In this document: in pieces, positions 1 through 47,206 of the stretch
How positions within the stretch are numbered: the first letter of the stretch is position 1
Layout of the letters: every line of letters starts with the position of its first letter
NCBI GenBank assembly: GCA_002245135.1
Contig: NGBS01000311.1
Location: 1 to 64,000 of the forward strand
DNA from: Proteromonas lacertae
Taxonomy: Eukaryota
Reading direction: 5' to 3'
DNA length: 64,000 nucleotides
Position numbers and translations under genes: made by a program
The notes under the pieces: model-generated
Told to the model about the DNA's origin: nothing
What the model saw: the letters and a program-made list of their open reading frames with translations, nothing else
Databases searched by the model: none

Positions 1-1516
1 TCAGCATATTTCACAGATGCTCAAAGAAGAGCAACAATAGAAGCTGGAACATTAGCAGGATTAAATGTATTAAGAGTAATAAACGAGCCACTGCTGCTGC
101 CATCGCTTATGGTTATTAATAACAAGAAAGAGAATAGAACAATCTTAGTGTATGATTTTGGTGGTGGTACTTTTGATGTTTCAATTATTAAAGTAGTAGG
201 TAATGAAGTAACAGTTCTTGCTACAGATGGAAACGACCATTTGGGTGGTGAAGATATAACAAACAGATTGGTAGAATTCTTCTGCCATGAGATTGGAATT
301 GATATTGAATCAAAATCACAGTTAATACAAGAATAAAAGCAGCTTGTGATAATGCAAAATATTGCTAAGTTCAACAAATGATAGTGATATATTTGTTGAT
401 GTTGAAGATGATACAAAAAGTTTAACAGTCTCAAGAGCTAAATTGGATGATATATGTAAAGATTTGTATAATAAACAATCGAAATTGTTGAAAGAGCATT
501 ACAAAGTAAAAGCATATCAAAGAAAGATATTGATGATGTTGTATTAGTTGGTGGAAGTAGTAGAATTCCAATGATAGAAGAATTATTAAGAAAATGCTTT
601 CCAGGTAAGAATATAAATAAAGATATAAATCCAGATGAAGCTGTAGCAACAGGTGCAGCATTATTAGCAGCTGATTTAATAAAAGGAACATATGAACATA
701 GCTTTAGTAATGGAGCAAAAGCGATTGTTGATATAAAAAATGATGAGATATTAGGGACAATTACAAATATAAAACCACCAAAAGATGAAATTAATGAAGA
801 AATGAATGGAACAATCACTGTAAAAAATGGTAGTATGAAATATTCATCCAATGGTGATAGAATCACAACAAAAAGAACATTTAAAAGTAATAAATCAACA
901 ATAAATGAAAGATTACCATCTCCAATACCATTATCAATTGTTGAAGAAGAATATCAATTGAATTTACAGAATCATTTACAGCAACTACATCAAAAAGCAC
1001 GTTTAAATGTGAGAAATCAGTATTGCAGCAACCACCACCACCTCCTCCTCATTCTTCAGATCAAACAATACCATTAGTTACAGAAGATAAACATCAATCT
1101 GAGACATTAACAGTTACTGGCTTTAAAGAACCTATTAAACCTGCTACATCTGCAACATTAGTAGTTAAAGATGTATTGTCACATTCAATTGGTGTTAATA
1201 TGCATGGTGATATGTTAAGTGTGATTTTAGAAAAAAATCTCAGTATTCCTTGTAAAAAGGAGAAAAGTAATTATAGACCATCTCGTGATGGACAAAGTAA
1301 AATGGTATTAAAGCTTCTAGAAGGTGAAGATCCTGTTGCTTCTCATAATAAAATCATTAGAACTTATACTATTGACGGTTTACCTACAGATAAAAAATGG
1401 AGTGATTTTAATTTCACATATACGATGAACCTCAATGAAAATGGTATATTGACATCTCTTATAAAGAAGCTTCAAACCTTGTTCCTGAAGGAACATTAGC
1501 GGTAGATAACATATAA
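1..1516 (+). CDS. Divergent Hsp70-family protein, 5'-partial, several apparent single-base indels
   Basis: Motifs across frames: AGLNVLRVINEP(T)AAA, VYDFGGGTFDVS, DGNDHLGGED, VVLVGGSSRIP, INPDEAVATGAA; Pro-rich insert; SBD-like VKDVLSHSIG...LEGE...NENGIL. Frame breaks fall in short A/T runs. Confidence 0.8.
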
Positions 1517-1609
1517 TATGTAACTTAATATTGCTTTTATGTTTTAATGATAAAAAAACATCAAAAAATAAGATATAGGCTTGATTCCTAAGAATTCAAA
1601 CTAATTTAA

Positions 1610-2446
1610 ATGCCTTTAAAATTAAAGCAAATAGAGATTACTAATTTAGATATTTCGTATTTTATTTATTGGATAAGCATTTATTTTACTAGATTTGATG
1701 CTCAGATAGACGAAAAGCTCTTTATTACACTATTTCAAGAATTATTAAATCAAACACTCTATTTAAACCAACAAATATCATTGTATTTGTTATTTTGTTA
1801 TAATATAGACCAGTTGTAGAAATAAGTCCTTATATTGAGAATTTAAAGCTATCTGATGTAGGTGTAAAGTATTATATTCCATATAACTCTAATCTTCAAC
1901 AGAAAGTTAAGACATGGAGGTTTAAAGAATGCTTCAAGGTTTAGTGAGGATTTACAGAAATTAGGTGATTTCCTTTCAAAATTTTCATTTCCTACCAATA
2001 TTCGAGAAGGTTTAATTATAATAGGAGGAAATATTATGTATCCATACTCCTTTATTCATATTATTGATTTACCTTGTGATTGTCACAAAGATAAACCAAT
2101 TACAGATAGTGTATCATTTATTAAATATTTATTATATAATATAATAGATAAGATCAGCTTGTGTAAGGAAGTCAATTAGAGAATATATAACTCAAAGTTC
2201 TACTCTGTTCACAAAAAAAGTAAAACCAATTCACATATTACTATTAGGTGAGAGGAATAAAATATACCCAGGATTCTTGCCAAAACCGTTATTTTCGATA
2301 AAGAAAATAAATATGAAAAAATAAAACTATTATTAAACATGCATTGTAGTAATACAGAAGGTAATATGGCGAATTCTATAGAAAATAGTGATTATATTTG
2401 GTATGAATGTGTTGTAAAACCAAAAGGTTTTAAGGATGAGATATAA
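1610..2446 (+). CDS. p31comet/MAD2L1-binding-protein-like HORMA protein (multi-exon)
   Basis: Spliced product contains LFQELLNQTLYLNQQISLP (resembles the p31comet ELLKxxxYQRQQLPLP segment) and ends SDYIWYECVVKPKGFKDEI* (resembles DYIWFQAPVTFKGF). Introns include 1657-1692; indels near the 3' end. Confidence 0.55.
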
Positions 2447-2578
2447 GTGTGTATGTATATAAGTATATCTAGTTATTTTATGATTATATGAATGTTTTTT
2501 GTTCTGTTCCAAATTTTAATAAATGTATATTCGTTTCATTTGATAAAAACTTGATTTGAGAAAGATATTTTTTCTAAA

Positions 2579-4401
2579 ATGTCTGATGAAATCTATTGTC
2601 CAGTTAGTTCATTATATTCACCACAAATGTATCACAAATCTTGATCTATTTTCAAAATAGCATGGGTTATCTCAACATGAAAGGTGATAAAATCAAAAAA
2701 GTGGACTCAGATGTATATAGTATTCAAGAATAGCATTTTGTACTATTACAATAATAATACTGCCAAAGAACCAAAAGGTATTATTGGCTTAGATGATGCA
2801 TCTATTGGAGTATTTGCATTTAAAATAATATAATAATAGGCTTCAGGGACAGTCGAAGGTCGTGATCATGTTTTTGAAGTCATAACTCGAACAGGAAGAG
2901 GATTCTATTTCCAGCCACAGAGTGCAGCTGAACAGAATGAGTGGGTTCGTGGCATTGAATAACCAATCTTATACTGCAATTAATAGGCAAGTAGAGGAGT
3001 TAGACAACGGATTAAAACAATTAGCTTTAGATCAAGCCATGACAGCTGAGCAAAGTATGAAAGACAAAGAGCATATCAAAACATTGGAGAATTCATTATC
3101 AGCTTACAAAAATGCAGCTCCTGTCATACGTATTGTTGAATTACAAAAGATATTTATGAAAAGAGTGATGATAAGATCATTTCACGCTTGGTTAAACAAT
3201 GTTGATGTAATAACAACCAATAAAATAATAGATGAAATAAATGAAGAACATCAACAACAACAGAATGAATTACAATCGGAGATACAGAATAAAGTGGAAG
3301 AAATGCAAAAATTGAATGAAAATCATAAATCAGAATTAGATGAAATGGAAAAATCTTTTAATAGTTTTAAACAAGAAATGGAAGATAAACAAAAAGAAGA
3401 AATAAATCAATTGGAGTTGAAGTATAAAATGCAAATAGAAGAAGAGAAGATAAGCTCAAAACAAAGTATATTTCATTATTAATATTGTTTTATTTAGAAT
3501 TAAATGAGATGGGATTAATATTATTGAATAGAATGGCATTATCTATAAAATCAAAACAACTAGTTAGATATTTTGAAAAATGGAATTTTATCACTCACAT
3601 TCCAAGATATCATGTAGAAATATCAAACTGAAAGAATGTGTTACTTCAATAGAAAATCTATATAAAGAGAAATTGAATGAAATAATAAAGAATAGAGATG
3701 AGATAATAGATTCAGTGATAAATTCATATGATGAAACTATAGATGAAGTATATATTATTATTATTATTAATTTTTTATTATATTATATTATAGTTAAAAA
3801 AACACTGTGAAATATCAATTCAGACAGCATTAGCATCAACTAATGCAGCAAAGCAATTACTAAAGACTTCTGATAATAATAATAATAATAACGCTGATTG
3901 TATTTCTTTAGACAAGATTAATGAAGAATTAATAAAAATAAATGAATATTATAATAATCATAATCCCAATAATATTCCAATAGATCAATTGTATGAACAA
4001 ATTCATGTATATTTATTATAATATATATATATATATATAGACATTGGAGAATGAGATTAAGAGATTGTCTAATACTGTTGAAGAGAAAGATCAAAATATA
4101 AACCAATCAAAGATTAATGAAATCGATAATAAAAAGGATGAAGAAATAATGAATCTAAAAGTATTTATTTATTTATTATTATTATTATTATAAAAATAGA
4201 ATGAATTAAATAAAATAAAAACTGAAGATCATGTGAATGAATCATTAAAGAAAGAATTGGAACAAATGAAACAGAAATTTGATGAAATGGTGAATGATTC
4301 AGTAGAAATTAGAAAGAAATTAGAAACAGTATTAATATGTAATAGTGATTTTATTGTTATAGGCTGAGAATAAACTCAAATTAGTTGAAAATCCACAATA
4401 A
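2579..4401 (+). CDS. PH-domain plus coiled-coil protein (multi-exon)
   Basis: GYLNMKGDKIKKW...ILYYY...KEPKGIIGL...HVFEVIT...FYFQ...EQNEWVRGI is a PH domain, followed by a long E/K/Q-rich coiled coil (ORF 2922-3482) with several short GT-AG introns. Confidence 0.75.
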
Positions 4402-4483
4402 ATGTATTATTTAATTAAATTGTTTATGATATATTCATGAATAAACACATATATGTAAAAATAAAAGCATATCTCAATAGTAA

Positions 4484-5664
4484 TTACTCAATTTTCAACT
4501 TCCAACTCAATTTTTCTCCAAATTTAATAGGAACTACAACAGAATCACCAAATTCATATTCTTTCGGTATTCTACAATATATTATTAAACAAATATACAA
4601 TTCTTCCTCTTTCTCTAATATTACTTTTCCTCCATTTCTTGGAAAGCCATAAAATCAGCTCCATTCTCACTATTCATTAATATTATTACATTTAACATCA
4701 AATGATGTATATATATATATTAATACCAAGCAAATTTCTTAAAATTCTCAATACAACCAGCTTCTTCAAATGCCATCATATATAATTCTAATGCATGTGG
4801 CATAGTGAAACAACCTGCACATCCTGAAGGACACTCCTTCTTTCCTTTAGGATGTGGAGCACTATCTGTCCCTAAGAAGAATTTATTACTTCCACTTCTA
4901 ATTGCTTGAAGTAATGCCTATATGTATAATAATAACTATACTTGTCGATGTTTTTCTTTCTTTAAAATAGGTAAACAATAATAATGAGGTTTAACTCCAC
5001 CAACTAACAATGAATTTCTATTAAATAATAAATGTTGAGGAGTAATAGTAGCAGCAACGTTAGGACCAGTGGACATTATAAAATCTACAGCATTTTTGGT
5101 TGTTATATGTTCCATGACTATTTTAAGTTTTGGATGGTCTTGGATTAAAGGAATTAATATTTGTTTTATGAATTCTTTTTCTCTATCGAAGATATCAATT
5201 GAAGGATCTGGTATTTCACTGTGAATACAAAGAGGCATTGATAATTCACTCATTTTTTGTAATGCTGGATATACTTTCTTTATATCTGTTACACCACTAG
5301 CTGAGTTGGTTGTTGCTCCCAGCTGGATAATACTTACAAGCAAAAACTTGTCCACTTTCTTTGGCTTTTACTATTTCTTTCTGGCGATGTTGTGTCTGTT
5401 AAATATAATGTCATTAGGAATTGAGTATTGGTTTTTGGATTACAAGCTTTTAATATTCTCTTTTGATAATCTAAAGCCATTTCAGTTGTTGTAATTGGTG
5501 GAATAAGGTTGGGCATTACCAATACTCTACCATAAACTAAAGGAATCTTTGAACGAGAGATCTATGTTTGTTAAAATTGAAAAATCATACTCCATGTTAC
5601 TTCCATCACGAAGATGCAAATGAAAGTCATCTGGTATTGGTATCTCAACTACTTTATTAAACAT
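4484..5664 (-). CDS. pyrC: Dihydroorotase, type II (PyrC/URA4-like)
   Basis: PDDFHLHLRDG, VMPNLIPP, LMTLYLTD, YPAGATTNS, IVMEHITT, TPQHL, YCLPILK, FLGTDSAPH. Introns plus 2-3 apparent indels around 5320-5530. Confidence 0.92.
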
Positions 5665-5733
5665 TGCAACAAATCTTTCAAGCTTTTGCATGTAACGGAT
5701 ATTGTTTTTAGAATAAATCTGTTTTTTTAAAAT

Positions 5734-6957
5734 ATGGAGACAACTGATGCACCTCAGATCATAGAACATATCAATCAATCTGTAAATTTCACACCTTATG
5801 ATACTAAATGGATTCCATGCTCTGCTAAGTTTGTTGCACTTGGTATTAAGCCAAGAGGTACTGGAGCAATTAATATTTATGAATTACAAAAAGGTGAAGC
5901 AAAATGTATAAAAGAGGTATATTAATTTGTATTATGAGTGTAGATTGAAAGACCAAATGGTATAAAATGTGGAACTTTTGATGCTTCCTCTCTTGAAGAT
6001 CGTTATTTAGCAACTGGAGATTATAAAGGTTATTTAAGCATATAGTATAGACAAAATCATGTTTTCTAATATATCTAGTGATCTTGATAATCCAGAAGTA
6101 CCAGTATTCAATCAAAAAGGTCATTCTACAATAATTAATGCAATAGATGGATGTTCAGGCTCAAATATCGGATGTGGTGCTCCAGAAATAGCTACTGCTT
6201 CCAGGGATGGATGTGTTAAGATATGGGACCAACGTGTAAATGAACCAGTAGTATCCTTAGAACCAAAGAAAGCTGAGAAAATGCCAGATCCTTGGACTAT
6301 AGCCTTTGGTAACTCCTATAATGATCATGAAAGATGTATAGCGTGTGGTTATGATAATGGTGATGTAAAATTATATGATTTATATATGAATAAAGTACGT
6401 TGGGAGACAAATGTAGGAAATGGTGTGGTTAATCTCCAATTTGATAGAAAAGATATTGAAATGAATAAAATGGTTGTTACAACGTTAGAATCAAAGTTCC
6501 GTGTTTATGATATGAGAACGCAACATAAAACTGAAGGATTTGCGTATTTATCACAAAAGGTATAGATTATATGTTTTATATTATTACTATTTATAATAAT
6601 ATATAGGCACATAAGAGCACTATATGGTTAGCAAGACATTTACCACAAAATCGAGATCTATTTGTGACATGTGGAGGAAATGGAGGAATTAATATATATA
6701 AATAGTATAATATATTATATATTGACTATTATATATATATATATAATAGTTCTTATCCTGGACAAAGACAAATAAAAGATGTTGAAGGTGGATTAAGAGG
6801 AGTGATTGGAAGTGTTGAGTTATTGAATAGTCGTGTATATTCTACTCAACCGATAGTTTCGTTTGATTGGAGTAGTGATAAAGAAGGATTGGCGTGTGCT
6901 GCGATATTAGATCAAACTATTAGAGTTTTTATTGTAACGAAGTTAAATAAATATTAA
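5734..6957 (+). CDS. WDR92: WD-repeat protein 92 / DNAAF10 (axonemal dynein assembly factor)
   Basis: PQIIEH...[53 protein letters not shown]-terminal [15 protein letters not shown]; 4 short introns. Confidence 0.9.
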
Positions 6958-7058
6958 TTCATTTTGAATATTGTTGTTGTTGTTGTTGTTGTGAATAAGA
7001 GTTATTATATAAAGAAATTTAAGAGGTGTAAAATATACAAAAAAAGTGGTTTACAGAA

Positions 7059-10000
7059 ATGAAATGTCATAATAATAAAGATTTGCTTGACAGGAAGCTG
7101 TTGGGCGTTCATTTTAATAGGTCAGGAATATCTGTGGGAGTAGAAAAAGGAGGAATTAGTAAAATTGAGCTAGTAGATTTAAATAATGGCGGCAATAATA
7201 GGGTCTATCCCCTATGTGCTTTATACTATGGGAAAAAAGAATGGAAGTATGGTACTGCTGCTAAAGATGTTCGTTTTATGTACGGTGTGTTTGTTAATGA
7301 TATATTTAATTTTATTGGTAAAGAATATACAGAAATACCGTATCCAGAATCTTATGACAATGAAATTAAGAGAAATGAAGAAAATTCAGTATCTTTTATT
7401 ATAAACGAAAGAAAAAAGAGTGAAACTGTCAACAATATTTTTAAAAAACTTATGCAACGCTGTATTAACGAGTTAAAAGAACACACGCAATTGGAAGAAA
7501 TTAGTTATGTATTAACTATACCGCCTTATTTTACAAGGATACAGACACAAATTATAAAAGATACAATGTTAGAATATGAATTGAAACTAGTTAACGCAAT
7601 ATTTGATCCAATTGCTTCTGTTTTCGTACATGTGCAAGATAATTATTTATATTCAACAAAAAATTATATTGTTATTGACTTAGATGAGTATTCATTTACT
7701 GGTTCAGTTGTCACAGTTAAAGATGGAAATATATCATTAAATTATTATATTAGAGATGATGATTTAGGTTATACACATTTAGAAAATAACTTTATAACAA
7801 GTATATATGATAAATTGAGTGAAAAATATGAAATAAACAACAAAAAACAACAAAAATATAAAACAGATTTAGAGAATATTTTTCACAGCATTAGTTGCTG
7901 TGTTAATTACAATCCAAATATGGATGATTTAGATGTTAATATAGAAAAAAGTTATGTGGTAGAATTATGGCAATCCTTAACGAAAAAAATACACAAAAGA
8001 ATACATGAATTGTCTGATTTTATAAATGATAATGAACTTAAATATCCAGATATTGTTCTTAGTGGAAGTGGATGTCAATTTGCATTGTTTAGAGAATGTT
8101 TTTCCTACATATTTCATACGTATAATATACTAGATAATGGAACAAATTTATCAGAAATTGTTGTAAATGGTGCTACATTACTTGCCAATGATAGTAGAGG
8201 ATATACAATTGATTCTATGTCTTTTATTGATGATATGTCTTTTGGTATAGATTTAGGTAGTAAGTATTCTATATGTTCATGTTTTAAAGATGGTTTTAAT
8301 GTATTTACTAAAAAGTTTACAAGTTTTATTGATAGTACATATCAGCCAGCTACTCAATATATTAACAGTGAAGAGGATCTAATAAAGATAGATAAAGACT
8401 TACTGAGAAAAATGAAGAATAATATTTGTTTAAATGCAAAATATATTACAACTGATCTTCCTACTGTTTTTACAATCCCACTGTGTTATTCTGTTAATCA
8501 GAAATATGATTTGAAAAAAGAAGCTGAAGAAGGTGGATATAAGGTGTTATCTTTAGTGTATTCTTCATTTGCAGCTGTTATATATTCCATTTATTGTAAA
8601 CTCATATCAAAATGTAATTGCAAAATGCTTGTATTTAATTATGGAAAAAATGATAATGAAATGTGTATAATCAATAAAGAAGGTAAAAGAATTGAATTAA
8701 ATACTGATATGAATCTAACAATAGATGGTTATACTTATTCAGATATATCTAAACTGTTTAAAGAATATCTATCAAATGATGAAGAAATATATGACGAAAA
8801 CAAGAAGATAATGTTTAATGATGTAGTTAAAAAATAAATAAAAATGTAAATAATACACATGAAATAGTGGATTATATATTAGTTGTTGGAGATTTAGAAA
8901 ACTTTCCAATGTTGAAAGATAATATAGAATCTGTATTTTCAAAGAAATCAATTATTTATTTATCATCAGATTATATTTCAGTTGGTGCTTCAATTTATGC
9001 AAATCAATTATTAACAAATACAGATACTTTTGAAATAATTGATTATTCTGAATATGATGATTTATCATTTGGAATTGATTTAGGAACAACTTATAGTGCT
9101 GCATGTTTTACAAGAGATAATAAAAATTGGGAAATGATTGATAATCAAACATCATCATCTTTCCCATCATCTATATTATTTGTGAAGAATAAAAATAATG
9201 TCAAATATTTTGTAGAGAAATCTTCATTTACACCAAAAGATTATCCTGTATATGATAGTAAAAGATTCATTGGTAAAAGTTACAATGAATTGAATGAATA
9301 TGAAGATAGTAGGTATTTGTTCAAATTGATTGAAAATAATAAAAAAGTATATTATGATATAGAATTCAACAATTCTCAATTACTATTGTCTCCTGAAGAT
9401 GTTTCAGCAACTATCTTGAAACATTTAAAACAAAAATCTATAAAAAGAATAAAAACAGCAATACAACCAAATACAGTAATTCCTTGTGTTATAACTACTC
9501 CAGCATTATTCACTTACAGACAAAGATATGAAACTAAAAGAGCTGCTCAAAAGGCTGGATTGAATGTATTATCGATAATAAATGAGCCGACAGCAGCAGC
9601 AATTGCATATTTAAATGATGATGATTCTATTAAAGATCAAATATGCAAGATAATAGTATATGATTTTGGTGGAGGTACTTTTGATGTAAGTATAGTTGAA
9701 AAGAACTATAGAAACTTGAGAGTTATTTGTAGTGATGGAGATGATCATTTAGGCGGAGAAGATATTACAAATAGATTAGTAGAATATATATCAGCAGATG
9801 TAAAAAGTAAATTTGGTTTAACAGATATAGAAAAAAATTTGAAAAAAAGAATAATTGGAGAATGTGAAACAGTTAAAAAAGACTTGAGTAAGGCTGCTAA
9901 AATTGATATTTCATTGGAATATAAGGATAAAACTTACAAAAAGACAATATCAAGAGATGAATTAGATGAAATGTGTAGAGATATTTATAACAAGACTATT

Positions 10001-10588
10001 ACAATAATAAAGAGATGTATAAAGAATAATTACATTAACAAAGCAGATATTAAATATATCCTATTTTGTGGTGGTTCATCAAGAATTCCATGCATAAAGG
10101 AAAGAATTGAAAAAGAATTTGAAAGTATGAAGGTAATGAATAATATTCATTGTAAAGAAGCAGTAGCTAGAGGAGCAGCAATATATGCAAATATACTTAG
10201 AGGAAAACAAAGAAATTTTGTTAAAGTTGCTGATATTTTAAATCATTCACTATATTATGAATATAGTGGTAATAAAGGTAAATTATTTAGAATGTTTGAA
10301 AAAAATGCTATATTGGATGAATGTCATATTCGTATATCAATTATGACTGAAGATATTGGTTATGCTTGGATTAAAATATATGAAAAAAAGAATGGTAGAA
10401 AAGAAATGATTAACAGGTTTGATATATCGAGTGATTATAGAAGAAATGTGAAAGTATATTTTGATGTAAATAGTGATGGAGTATTAGCAGTAAGTTATAT
10501 TTTGAATGGAGCTGAGTTCGGCGGGGACAGGGACAAAAAGGACATGTCCGGGACATGTCCGGGACAAGAGTATGATAAAGGACAGTAA
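7059..10588 (+). CDS. Large intronless protein with three tandem Hsp70 ATPase-like modules and a truncated substrate-binding domain
   Basis: ORFs 7059-8837 and 8867-10588 join if one A is added to the A6 run at ~8829-8834. Module starts LGVHFNRSG, FGIDLGSKYS, FGIDLGTTYS; only the third keeps INEPTAAA, DFGGGTFD and GGSSRIP. The C-terminus is supplied by the hAT insertion (original stop 11612-11614). Confidence 0.8.
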
Positions 10589-14889: not shown

Positions 14890-16012
14890 ATGTCAGCAAG
14901 TATAGCAGAACGTGAATGTGATTTATATGAAGTATATTAACTATCTTATATATATTTAGACTATGCCAGAACATCCTGATACAGTGCGTTGTACTTGTTG
15001 TAATCATCGATGTATTATTCAACCAAATGACCATGGCAAATGTGATGTAAGATATAATAAAGATGGTAAATTGTATTTAGCTCTTTATGGCTATCCTTGT
15101 GCTTTACATATCGATCCAGTTGAGAAGAAGCCTTTGCATCATTTTCTACCAAGTACAACCATATATTCAGTTGGTACAGTAGGTTGTAACTTCAAATGCA
15201 CATTTTGTCAGAATTGGGATATTTCTCAAGCTGTATTCCAAAAAGAACAAGAAATAAAAGAATCTTCTAAGGCATCAAGTAGTGATATTGAAGATTTAGT
15301 AGATTCAATCCATCGTTTAGGAAGAGCAACAAATCCTGAGTATGTAGTAACAAGTGCATTAGAAAAAGGATGTAGTAGTATTGCATTTACCTATAACGAA
15401 CCAACAATATGGGCAGAATATAGTCACGACATAGGAACATTAGCGATGAAGAATAATATAAAGTGTGTCTATGTTTCGAATGGTTTTATGACAGAAGAAC
15501 ATATAAAATATATGAAACCATATGTAAAAGCCATTAATATCGATTTAAAAGCATGGAATCCCAAATTTTATCGTCAATTATGTGCAGCGAATGTAGAATC
15601 AGTTAAAAAGAGTATAGCAATCTGTCATAGAGAAGGTATATGGGTAGAAGTAACCACATTAATAATACCTGATTCAAACGATTCAGATGAAGAATTAACA
15701 AATATTGCTAATTATTTGGTGTCTATATCACCAGCTATACCTTGGCATATATCAGCCTTTCATCCTGATTTTAAAATGACAGACAAAACAAGAACTCCAA
15801 TACAGACATTAGAAAGAGCTTATAATATTGGTAAAAAAGCGGGATTGAAATTTATTTACGTTGGTAATGTTGTGGCTGGTGAAAAAGAGAATACTTTTTG
15901 CCCAAAATGTAGTGCTTTGTTAATTGAGAGATCTGGATATAGAATAAGAGTAATGAAAGGTTTTAAAGGTGTTTGTAAATGTGGAGAAGTAATTGAAGGA
16001 GTTTGGGAATAA
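14890..16012 (+). CDS. AmmeMemoRadiSam-system-type radical SAM enzyme
   Basis: Exon 1 14890-14931, 28-nt GT-AG intron 14932-14959. DPVEKKPLHHFLP, GCNFKCTFCQNWDISQ (CxxxCxxC), IAFTYNEPT, VSNGF, NIDLK, WVEVTTLIIP, PWHISAFHPDFKM, YVGNV, C-terminal CPKC...CKC. Confidence 0.88.
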
Positions 16013-44466: not shown

Positions 44467-45343
44467 TTATATTGACTTTGTAAATTCATTGAAGATAATC
44501 TGTGAGATTTCTTTCATATCTTTATTTGGATATACTATATACAAACATAATATATATTATATTATACATTTATTCCATGATATATGAGTGTTTTCAAGCT
44601 CTTTTGATAAAATTTCAACAATTTTATCAACATCACCACTAATTGACATTTGTTCATTTTCATTGTTGTTCATATAAATATTATTATTTATTTTAGTAAT
44701 TAACACTACAGGTAAATAATGAGAAACATCATTTTCAATTGATAATAAACAAACATAATCAATTTTGTTATTTTCTGACATAATAACTTTAAAAATGAAC
44801 TTTGAATCATCAACTGATTCTATATATGACTATTTAAATATATTATATAATCTATTAAATACTTCTAATGGATCAGATTCAATATTGTATTTAGAAAGAA
44901 GAGATTTGTATTGATCCATGTATTTCATAAAGAAAGGAGGCGTTGATAAATGCTCGGCAAAATATAATTTTGAATTAACAAGCAAGGAATAATAAGTAAA
45001 TATGAATATATTCTATGTGATTAATACTTATATAATAATACTTCACATAATGTATGATATTCCTTAATAAAAGCAGAATTCGATAGTGATTCATCATATA
45101 TTTGATACCACGACAAAATCGATTGCAGTTTAGTCTATGGTTATATAAAAATATTATACTCCATCTTCTTCATTCATTAAACTGAAAAATTCCATTAATT
45201 TTTTGCGATATATCACATGTTGATTCAGATACTGAAGTCTATGAAAAGATTATGAAATATATGTTACATACAAATATATTTTGTATATCTGATTTAAATG
45301 AATCAACAGATATTGGTTTCCATTCTATTTTTAGAGAATCCAT
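44467..45343 (-). CDS. Hypothetical protein (about 6 exons)
   Basis: MDSLKIEWKPIS... joined through canonical short introns to ORF 44557-44781; no family recognised. Confidence 0.55.
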
Positions 45344-45450
45344 AATTTCTTCTTATTGTTTTACATAAAAGATTATATGATTAATTTCTTTTAATTCACA
45401 CACACACACAAAATGTACAAAAAATAATTAATGCATCTTACAAACACAGT

Positions 45451-45871
45451 TTACAATAATAATTTTTCGATTGAATTCTTTAAATCATCAATTTGTTTTA
45501 CTAATGGTGAACCTTCTTGTGTAATTACAGAACATGCAATTACAGGACGAGATACTCCACAAGCACGTCCTAAAGCGACTTTTGATTCAACAAAAACGTA
45601 TGGAACATTTTTATCTTCACAAAGAAGGGGTAAATGGAGTAAAATTTCTAATGGCTCAGTATCAGCAGCCATTACAATAAATTGAGAAATACCTCTGTTC
45701 AATGTCTTTGTTGCCTCATTTGCACCTTTTCTTAATTGCTTGTAACGTACAGCTTGTTCAATGAATGTAATGATTGATGATGTTAAATCATGATCTGCTA
45801 AAGGATAAGCTTTTGGGTTGATTTCTTTCTATTTACAAAATAACAATAAACGAGATATAATATACACTCAT
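45451..45871 (-). CDS. SNU13: Snu13/15.5K (NHP2L1) K-turn-binding protein
   Basis: [14 protein letters not shown]...[52 protein letters not shown]...[11 protein letters not shown]; intron after codon 2. Confidence 0.96.
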
Positions 45872-45882
45872 AGTCGATGTAT

Positions 45883-45917
45883 TTCGCTCAATGCAGGAAG
45901 TGCAATATCACTGCGAA
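45883..45917 (-). promoter_or_regulatory. Kink-turn hairpin in the putative SNU13 5' UTR
   Basis: Minus strand UUCGC-AGU-GA-UAU-UGCA-CUUCC-UGCA-UU-GA-GCGAA: 5-bp C-stem, 3-nt bulge ending in U, tandem G.A/A.G, U.U, A-U, 4-bp stem and pentaloop; ends 11 nt before the AUG. Confidence 0.75.
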
Positions 45918-45977
45918 TGAAAAATGCAGAAATAGTTTGAGTGGGTTTGAATCTGTTTTTTTATTTAAATCTTATTT

Positions 45978-46251
45978 ATGCCTTTGCAACAATTACCCTC
46001 ACTTATTATTATAGGTGGCTGTGTATGCCTAACCGCGGTCACATGGAAACTAGCTGACAAAGCTTATTATGGAAGAGTATAGGTTTATTATGTTTATTTC
46101 GTAGAGAATGCCAGTTGGAGGAGATGAATATGATTACATGTTATGGCGACGAGATGAAAAATTATTAAGAGAAGAAAGAAATAGAATTAAAGCAGAAGTG
46201 AAGAGAATGAAGAAAGAGGCTAAAACAGCTAAAACAGAATTAATTAATTAA
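45978..46251 (+). CDS. NDUFA1: Complex I accessory subunit NDUFA1 (MWFE)-like, 2 exons
   Basis: MPLQQLPSLIIIGGCVCLTAVTWKLADKAYYGR|RMPVGGDEYDYMLWRRDEKL matches the LPxxIIGG...KAYxGR...GxDExD...RRD pattern of NDUFA1. Missed by the ORF track. Confidence 0.75.
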
Positions 46252-46477
46252 TTATTATAAATGTAAATTGTAGTTATATTCTTTGGTCTTAGGTGATTTT
46301 AAATATATGAATCACAGATTTAACTTTAAAAAAAACGTGCAACTGTTAGTATAGATTGATGATATACAATCAATATGTTTTAATCTGAGTATCAATCTTC
46401 TTTGGTGAAATATTTTAAATATAAAAAATCTATTCGTTTCTCAATTATTTTATATTGCTTTTTCTTTTGAATAAAAT

Positions 46478-47206
46478 ATGGAATGTGAATATACAGTATT
46501 TCTATTTGTCAAATACATACGAATAATAGTACTCAGCACAAGGAAATAGACATAAATTAAATCCTCTTGGATCTTTCACAACCAAGCAAAAACCTAGTCC
46601 ACCAGGTTGTCCACCTCTTAAACTACCTTATTTACCAGGTACGGCTATAGAGAATGATAAAAATTGGCGTTTATGTGAAGATGAACAACATTTGAGGTTT
46701 TATTACAACACAATTACTGGTAAAAGTCAGTATGCAAATCCATATCAAGTATTTTATAACGTTTTATTATTTAAATACATAGTATTTACCAGAACAATTG
46801 TTATTGGGTGATTATTCACTAGATGATGCTTCATTCGAGGTATTATGGTTGAAATTAGATGTACTAAACACATATTCAATTAAATTACATAATATAATAA
46901 GTGAAGCTTTATTATGCGATATACTTTTACAACATCATTTCTTAGTGATTGCTTCATCAACTCGTGATGATGAAATAAAGATGTATTATATATATTTATT
47001 ATGTTTTTATCCATAGATATGTTTATGCCAGATTTTGGAATGATATTACTTATTATTTTGCTGAATTGACCTTTAGATTAAAATCAGCTAATCTATTGAT
47101 AGTTTCAAAATGTCAAAATCCAATGTATATAAGAGATTTCATTGAGTTATTGCCTTTAGATGAATTGTCATATAGTAAAAAACCAATTTGTGAAATAAAA
47201 GGATGA
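46478..47206 (+). CDS. WW domain plus beta-adaptin appendage platform-like domain protein, 4 exons
   Basis: NWRLCEDEQHLRFYYNTITGKSQYANP (WW-like); LDDASFEVLW...HHFLVIASS...IKIYVYA...YYFAEL...SKC...FIELL resembles B2-adapt-app_C. Confidence 0.6.

Follow-up and report, generated by a model that had tools for sequence, protein, structure and literature searches.

A predicted kink-turn in the SNU13 5' leader of Proteromonas lacertae, its recurrence before SNU13 in other eukaryotes and a possible role in autoregulation

The SNU13 locus

The window analysed here is a 64,000-nucleotide stretch of Proteromonas lacertae DNA (contig NGBS01000311.1). Its minus strand carries a SNU13 gene, which is separated from the probable start of a divergent gene by a gap of 197 nt housing both leaders and the promoter. 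The features of the locus are as follows.

45451..45828, minus strand: SNU13 exon 2, 125 codons plus stop, with matches to PF01248 and 1e7k_A
45829..45865, minus strand: probable intron of 37 nt, GT-AG, after codon 2
45866..45871, minus strand: coding part of SNU13 exon 1 (Met-Ser), AUG at 45871
45883..45917, minus strand: kink-turn hairpin of 35 nt in the predicted SNU13 5' leader, from the sequence and a descriptor match
45888..45891, minus strand: non-bulged strand of the kink-turn, 4n-1n, box-D-like
45908..45912, minus strand: 3-nt bulge AGU (45912-45910; L2 = G, L3 = U) followed by G1b and A2b, box-C-like
45913..45917, minus strand: 5' strand of the C-stem, pairing with 45887-45883; 5 bp, three of them G-C; -1b:-1n = C:G
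45915..45926, minus strand: possible, weak initiator-like element, resembling a presumed oomycete core promoter pattern
46069..46071, plus strand: probable start codon of the divergent neighbour, from its translation

The spliced SNU13 frame is 127 amino acids long and matches PF01248 with an E-value of 3.8e-27. Its best PDB match is the human 15.5K chain 1e7k_A (E 8.9e-58), and the residues equivalent to human E61 and K86, which are RNA contact residues according to PMC1874613, are retained (here and below, papers are cited for those portions of their text that were available). Judged from these matches, the gene encodes Snu13/15.5K, a kink-turn-binding protein of the L7Ae family with conserved RNA contacts. 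An earlier sequence-only reading of this DNA had placed an intron after codon 2. The predicted 37-nt GT-AG intron has a counterpart at the same position in Blastocystis and in a relative (P0001) whose Snu13 protein is 96% identical. The P0001 protein starts with a read-through of the intron at the equivalent place, so this close relative has the same gene structure. The P0001 annotation is an artefact, in which stops are called as glutamine and the frame continues across the intron and beyond the genuine stop.

Several observations concern the surroundings of the gene. The divergent neighbour, read from 46069 on the plus strand, appears to be multi-exon, with a weak WW-domain match in a downstream frame at 46530-46808. 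A neighbouring 5'-nucleotidase has its best named match in Blastocystis sp. (41%), followed by oomycetes, which makes a stramenopile the probable source. By eye, several long plus-strand frames at 475-10588 resemble divergent tandem HSP70-family domains, and an intronless plus-strand frame at 14963-16012 is like a bacterial-type radical SAM enzyme, possibly acquired by lateral transfer.

Positions 45926-45915 of the minus strand fit what we take to be the initiator pattern of oomycete core promoters, a pattern with six matches in 128 kb (both strands of the window), the other five all on the minus strand. The match is weakly suggestive of a transcription start at ∼45925 or 45918, which would be 1-8 nt above the hairpin.

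Anatomy of the leader hairpin

The hairpin described in the sequence-only reading was found again on the minus strand, with its pairing, bulge, GA steps, U.U and A-U pairs and loop as claimed. It has the standard components of a Snu13/15.5K-type kink-turn, namely a canonical stem, a 3-nt bulge, tandem G.A/A.G pairs and a non-canonical stem, and the purine at L2 and U at L3 are those of a Snu13-type bulge. The tandem pairs are formed by the GA at 45909-45908 opposite the GA at 45889-45888, the third pair (3b:3n, 45907/45890) is U.U and the fourth (4b:4n, 45906/45891) is A-U. An upper stem of 4 bp (45904-45901 with 45895-45892) carries a pentaloop at 45900-45896, and there is an unpaired extra U at 45905, absent from the earlier description. 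The terminal loop lies on the non-canonical stem, which gives a U4-like polarity; this topology, and a box C/D-like U.U pair with A-U replacing G-C, had also been noted and are seen in the sequence. The hairpin ends 11 nt before the SNU13 AUG, and A1n is 17 nt from it. The segment had further been called GC-rich for an intergenic gap. GC content is 46% in the hairpin and 37% over the 197-nt gap as a whole, but a different 40-nt block within that gap reaches 50%, which makes this argument weak.

Chance expectation and folding

The descriptor used throughout requires at least four Watson-Crick C-stem pairs, a bulge of the form N-purine-U, two GA steps 7-45 nt apart and a Watson-Crick fourth pair, and was fixed only after loci had been inspected by eye. 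It has seven matches in the 128 kb of the window; the C-stem at the SNU13 site contains three G-C pairs and those of the other six contain 0-2. When the 249-nt stretch upstream of SNU13 was shuffled, 2 of 2000 shuffles matched the descriptor, a post hoc figure.

As an isolated 37-nt fragment, the hairpin has a minimum free energy structure that contains both stems (-6.3 kcal/mol). Over 45872..45917 the minimum is a different fold (z = -0.13), in which the kink-turn hairpin is not favoured, and the C-stem probability is at most 0.07 once 10-60 nt of flank are included. These values were calculated with ViennaRNA, which scores neither tandem G.A pairs nor bound protein. With the G.A pairs thus ignored, the kink-compatible fold is penalised in all homologues, by 1.2-7.7 kcal/mol, and constrained folding did not separate real from spurious kink-turns. 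For transcripts starting at 45918-45925, the energy model places the kink-compatible fold 1.8-2.8 kcal/mol above the competing ensemble, and for starts at 45945 or further upstream it is disfavoured by more than 6 kcal/mol. Under the ion-folding rule of PMC6298567, the C:G at -1b:-1n favours folding and the U.U at 3b:3n falls outside the rule.

Recurrence before SNU13 in other eukaryotes

A metagenome search over 35 of 64 parts gave 338 confirmed SNU13 relatives, of which the best 80 were kept. Removal of 13 near-duplicates left 67 unique loci, 60 of them with at least 60 nt of upstream sequence. The descriptor matches the sense upstream region (up to 400 nt) in 16 of these 60 loci from the best 80 of 338. 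Across the same set it matches 1/60 upstream regions in antisense, 1/59 downstream regions on each strand, 1/67 coding regions and 0/43 regions further upstream, and shuffled upstream regions gave 0.45 ± 0.67 matches, with a maximum of 4 in 200 shuffles. Comparison of upstream with downstream matches gives a Fisher p of 1e-4, which is overstated because the carrier loci fall into tree groups and are not independent.

When the bulge letters were left free (any 3 nt), 17/60 loci matched, against 2.95 ± 1.55 in 60 shuffles, and 16 of the 17 have a purine-U bulge. Control descriptors with a 2-nt bulge (6/60), a 4-nt bulge (4/60), AG/AG (2/60) or GA/AG (6/60) stayed within the shuffle range. Thus, the signal depends on the combination of a 3-nt bulge and GA/GA, and the search itself does not impose the purine-U. 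A relaxed scan found two further sites, one with a 3-bp stem (L011) and one lying in a distant first exon (L078). Altogether, 25 of the 67 unique loci from the best 80 of 338 carry the motif in this forward form or in the reverse form described below; the other 42 have neither, some of them being truncated or having a distant first exon.

In a quick Snu13 tree, 11 of the 18 forward carriers fall in an animal group and four in a fungal group, with L018, L065 and L074 weakly placed; most deep forks are unresolved, so this is a rough placement only. Carrier names obtained through protein clusters include copepods, beetles and Malassezia. The sequence-only reading had implied an element particular to this lineage, which does not hold, as the same element is widespread among eukaryotic SNU13 leaders. 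The window hairpin is very probably one instance of it. No SNU13 relatives were found in viral contigs.

A side observation concerns two copepod-like SNU13 leaders, which appear to contain two nested kink-turns, clear at L015:1430-1471 and ambiguous at L011:1409-1450, possibly forming a two-site switch.

Comparative anatomy and covariation

The anatomy was compared over the 18 forward loci, from the best 80 of 338, together with the window (n = 19). L2-L3 is GU in all 19, although the U was required by the descriptor, and -1b:-1n is C:G in 17. At the third pair, A.C occurs in nine and U.U in six; the fourth is G-C in 11, C-G in seven and A-U in the window only. Boxes C and D (RUGAUGA and CUGA) would give U.U followed by G-C (consensus from PMC10557570), a combination found next to the G.A pairs in 0/19. 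The distance from kink to AUG varies from 9 to 67 nt across carriers, a range that includes the 17 nt of the window.

Since MAFFT mis-registered mixed alignments, a separate alignment was made for each of the three sets (A.C-type, U.U-type and reverse-polarity). The U.U set, including the window, shows double changes at 5/5 stem pairs with 30/30 cells paired, and the A.C set double changes at 3/5 stem pairs with 58/60 cells paired, counts that are partly circular in that the loci were chosen by pairing. Covariation in SNU13 leaders of related protists had been proposed as a check on the hairpin; compensatory stem changes are present among the carriers, and the Blastocystis leaders are without the motif.

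A covariance model built from 12 mostly animal leaders, with the window held out, finds the hairpin as its best, though weak, match in the window (14.2 bits, E 0.063), with an unrelated site scoring almost as high (13.4 bits). Among 68 loci this model recovered its 12 training sites and one chance site only, and with filters off it missed 6/6 held-out forward kink-turns. A second model, from five U.U-type leaders, missed the window, and in 41 other loci none of its matches had an E-value under 0.48.

A reverse-polarity form in budding-yeast-like fungi

A kink-turn of reverse polarity is present in seven fungal SNU13 loci (L034:1399-1453, L021, L027, L029, L031, L033 and L044), six of which could be named, as Geotrichum, Brettanomyces, Hanseniaspora, two Candida-type yeasts and Saccharomyces cerevisiae. 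Here the loop lies on a C-stem of two G-C pairs and ranges from 5 to more than 50 nt, the bulge is mostly AAG, and L3 is G, not U, in 6/7 loci. In this set 31/35 cells are paired and 3/5 pairs have double changes, and it stands out less against shuffles than the forward form; a descriptor derived from it matches 6/60 upstream and 0/59 downstream regions, against 0.76 in shuffles. The S. cerevisiae motif, at -90 to -36, is within the span of the published 170-nt 5' UTR (PMC1964767, Table 3), as placed from the sequence.

The Blastocystis comparison

Across species, then, the motif is conserved at SNU13 in forward (16/60) and reverse (seven loci) forms and is absent in Blastocystis, which supplies the closest, yet distant, named relatives of the window organism. 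Neither the forward and reverse descriptors nor inspection by eye revealed a kink-turn in the two Blastocystis SNU13 leaders, L057 and L068 (the L068 protein is 89% identical to a named Blastocystis Snu13), and a search for a hidden kink-turn, including one with the AUG as bulge, gave no register valid in both. Both loci share with the window the intron after codon 2. Lack of conservation of the GA/GA core in close relatives had been named as grounds for abandoning the hairpin. This applies in part, since the core is missing from Blastocystis, though these are only distant relatives. The two leaders, otherwise divergent, have in common an identical 16-nt block (L057:1417-1432 = L068:1418-1433) that ends ∼13 nt before the AUG. 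This block is similar to the non-bulged strand of the kink-turns in animals, and no partner strand was found in these leaders.

Proposed function and alternative explanations

We consider it somewhat probable, from the sequence and by analogy, that surplus Snu13 binds at the kink-turn in its own mRNA leader and thereby damps its own synthesis. The hairpin would lie inside the transcript of the window organism, probably near the cap. Without protein the kink would be marginal relative to competing folds, as the energy model predicts; Snu13 left over once U4, U3 and box C/D RNAs are supplied would lock it, and the resulting complex would lower initiation, most likely through interference with ribosome loading or scanning.

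The gene structures of the carriers bear on the output step. At least 14 carriers with at least 500 nt of upstream DNA have an ORF start uninterrupted by an intron (UTR introns being possible), and six contigs are transcript-like, starting 0-55 nt before the hairpin with no intron at the gene start. An intron lies within two codons of the AUG in four carriers (the window, L008, L019 and L078). Because many carriers are intronless at the gene start, an output through translation or mRNA fate is favoured over splicing. With the AUG also at variable distance, neither it nor a splice site is a constant neighbour of the kink-turn; impeded ribosome loading or scanning would be compatible with every case. 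The kink-turn and the autoregulation proposed in the sequence-only reading both gain independent support from the recurrence at eukaryotic SNU13 leaders, and the splicing branch of the proposal becomes less likely. Snu13 is mainly nuclear, so a purely cytoplasmic mechanism is uncertain. The missing U.U + G-C stem would suit Snu13 binding without assembly of a full snoRNP. Full snoRNP assembly reportedly obeys a stem II rule.

The main alternative, which we regard as unlikely, is that Snu13 acts on the same kink-turn in the nucleus, slowing removal of the codon-2 intron, causing retention or decay of the pre-mRNA in the manner of L30, or affecting export. There are precedents, in that L30 controls both splicing and translation (PMC3706390) and K-loops bound by 15.5K inhibit excision of their introns in cis (bioRxiv 10.64898/2026.08.03.742641), and the close spacing of hairpin, AUG and intron in the window, L008, L019 and L078 would suit it. 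However, an intron is missing from the ORF start of at least 14 carriers (again allowing for UTR introns), Blastocystis retains the intron and not the motif, and the 5' splice site of the window is outside the kink-turn and buried in the predicted folds with or without it. Less probable again is that the kink-turn serves another purpose, binding Snu13 or another L7Ae-family protein, for example to sense L30 or L7a, or to route the mRNA or the new protein to assembly factors. L7Ae-family proteins do cross-bind kink-turns (PMC4316175), and the G at L3 in 6/7 yeast loci is consistent with such a role; against this, all 19 forward motifs have the bulge preferred by Snu13, L30 favours a C or an A in the L3 position (PMC1874613), and the motif sits at the very gene that encodes the binding protein.

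It is also conceivable, though we think it very unlikely, that the window match is due to chance or is promoter DNA of the two divergent genes lying outside the transcript, even if the element is real elsewhere. The hairpin is not the minimum free energy fold in context, the window has seven descriptor matches, the motif is lost in Blastocystis and the window was missed by the U.U-type covariance model. Yet only 2 of 2000 upstream shuffles match, and the site has the most G-C-rich C-stem of the seven, on the right strand and at an AUG distance within the range of the carriers. The strand asymmetry and the compensatory pairing, moreover, point to an RNA rather than a DNA site.

If the leader kink-turn does feed back on Snu13 synthesis, it is probably, by analogy, the inherited eukaryotic counterpart of the autoregulation exerted by archaeal L7Ae through its leader. 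A fuller account, which is possible but which we offer tentatively, would see SNU13 leader kink-turns as a feedback loop that has been overlooked, that dates back to the last eukaryotic common ancestor and that descends from archaeal l7ae autoregulation, setting the pool of free Snu13 for the U4/U6.U5 spliceosome and the box C/D snoRNPs. Shine-Dalgarno occlusion would have been rewired to a cap-proximal block, the polarity flipped in budding yeasts, and the box C/D stem avoided, allowing Snu13 to bind with no full snoRNP being formed.

Both the spliceosome and the rRNA-modifying snoRNPs use Snu13/15.5K, and little has been described of the way its level is set. If this account is true, the kink-turn translational switch of synthetic biology would have a natural instance on a eukaryotic mRNA, in unbroken descent from the archaea. 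The conserved leader site makes a direct test possible in S. cerevisiae with few point mutations, and the window adds a probable stramenopile case that bears on the age of the element. Neither a kink-turn in the SNU13 leader nor Snu13 autoregulation was found described in the literature searched (mainly open literature, mostly at abstract level); the target lists of 15.5K RIP-PEN-seq and the supplements of the K-loop preprint may bear on this. Vertebrate SNU13 may have an autoregulatory exon; the literature search did not recover one.

Comparison with known systems

Snu13 binds kink-turns with a 3-nt bulge, its preference being for a purine at L2 together with a U that protrudes, and a selected RNA was bound at ∼35 nM (PMC1874613). 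Its natural sites in the U4 snRNA 5' stem-loop and the box C/D motifs share with the window hairpin the 3-nt purine-U bulge and the tandem G.A/A.G pairs, and the U.U third pair is as in box C/D. The window motif differs from them in its location in an mRNA leader, in having A-U for the G-C fourth pair and in lacking a guide between the boxes. A reading as a box C/D snoRNA was rejected on account of the A-U fourth pair, the mere 18-nt hairpin between the GA steps, the lack of a guide and the lack of an Rfam match. Within 45300-46600 Rfam gave only a chance snoRNA match (E 0.86), and none in 20 of the 80 loci; it has no family for a SNU13 leader element.

In yeast, the L30 element involves the 5' splice site region, whereas the SNU13 kink-turn lies wholly upstream of the splice site and is often found without an intron. 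The two cases are alike in that the transcript of an L7Ae-family protein carries a kink-turn in its 5' part, close to the AUG and the first intron (RPL30; PMC3706390, PMC5539422), and differ in the protein and in the bulge preference, C or A for L30 and U at SNU13. The autoregulation of NOP56 through snoRD86 (PMC8162545) and the intronic K-loops bound by 15.5K (bioRxiv 10.64898/2026.08.03.742641) likewise pair a C/D-type motif in pre-mRNA with control in cis, but those motifs are intronic and act on splicing. The main text of the K-loop preprint, in the portion available, contains no mention of SNU13 or UTRs.

A close parallel is in the archaea, where L7Ae represses its own translation via leader kink-turns, weak stem-loops that occur in either polarity and take up their fold when the protein binds (Daume et al. 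2017, PMC5539422; Huang, Ashraf and Lilley 2019, PMC6298567). There binding and repression have been demonstrated; for SNU13 they are predicted from sequence. The archaeal proteins occlude a Shine-Dalgarno sequence, and a capped eukaryotic mRNA would need another output step; the C:G at -1b:-1n, present in 17/19 forward SNU13 cases, occurs in none of six archaeal l7ae leaders. What the two have in common is the protein family, Snu13 being the functional homologue of L7Ae, and a kink-turn in the leader of the protein's own gene, with both polarities represented across species. The archaeal stem-loops are of low intrinsic stability, and the SNU13 hairpin, marginal in an energy model that ignores G.A pairs, may be so too.
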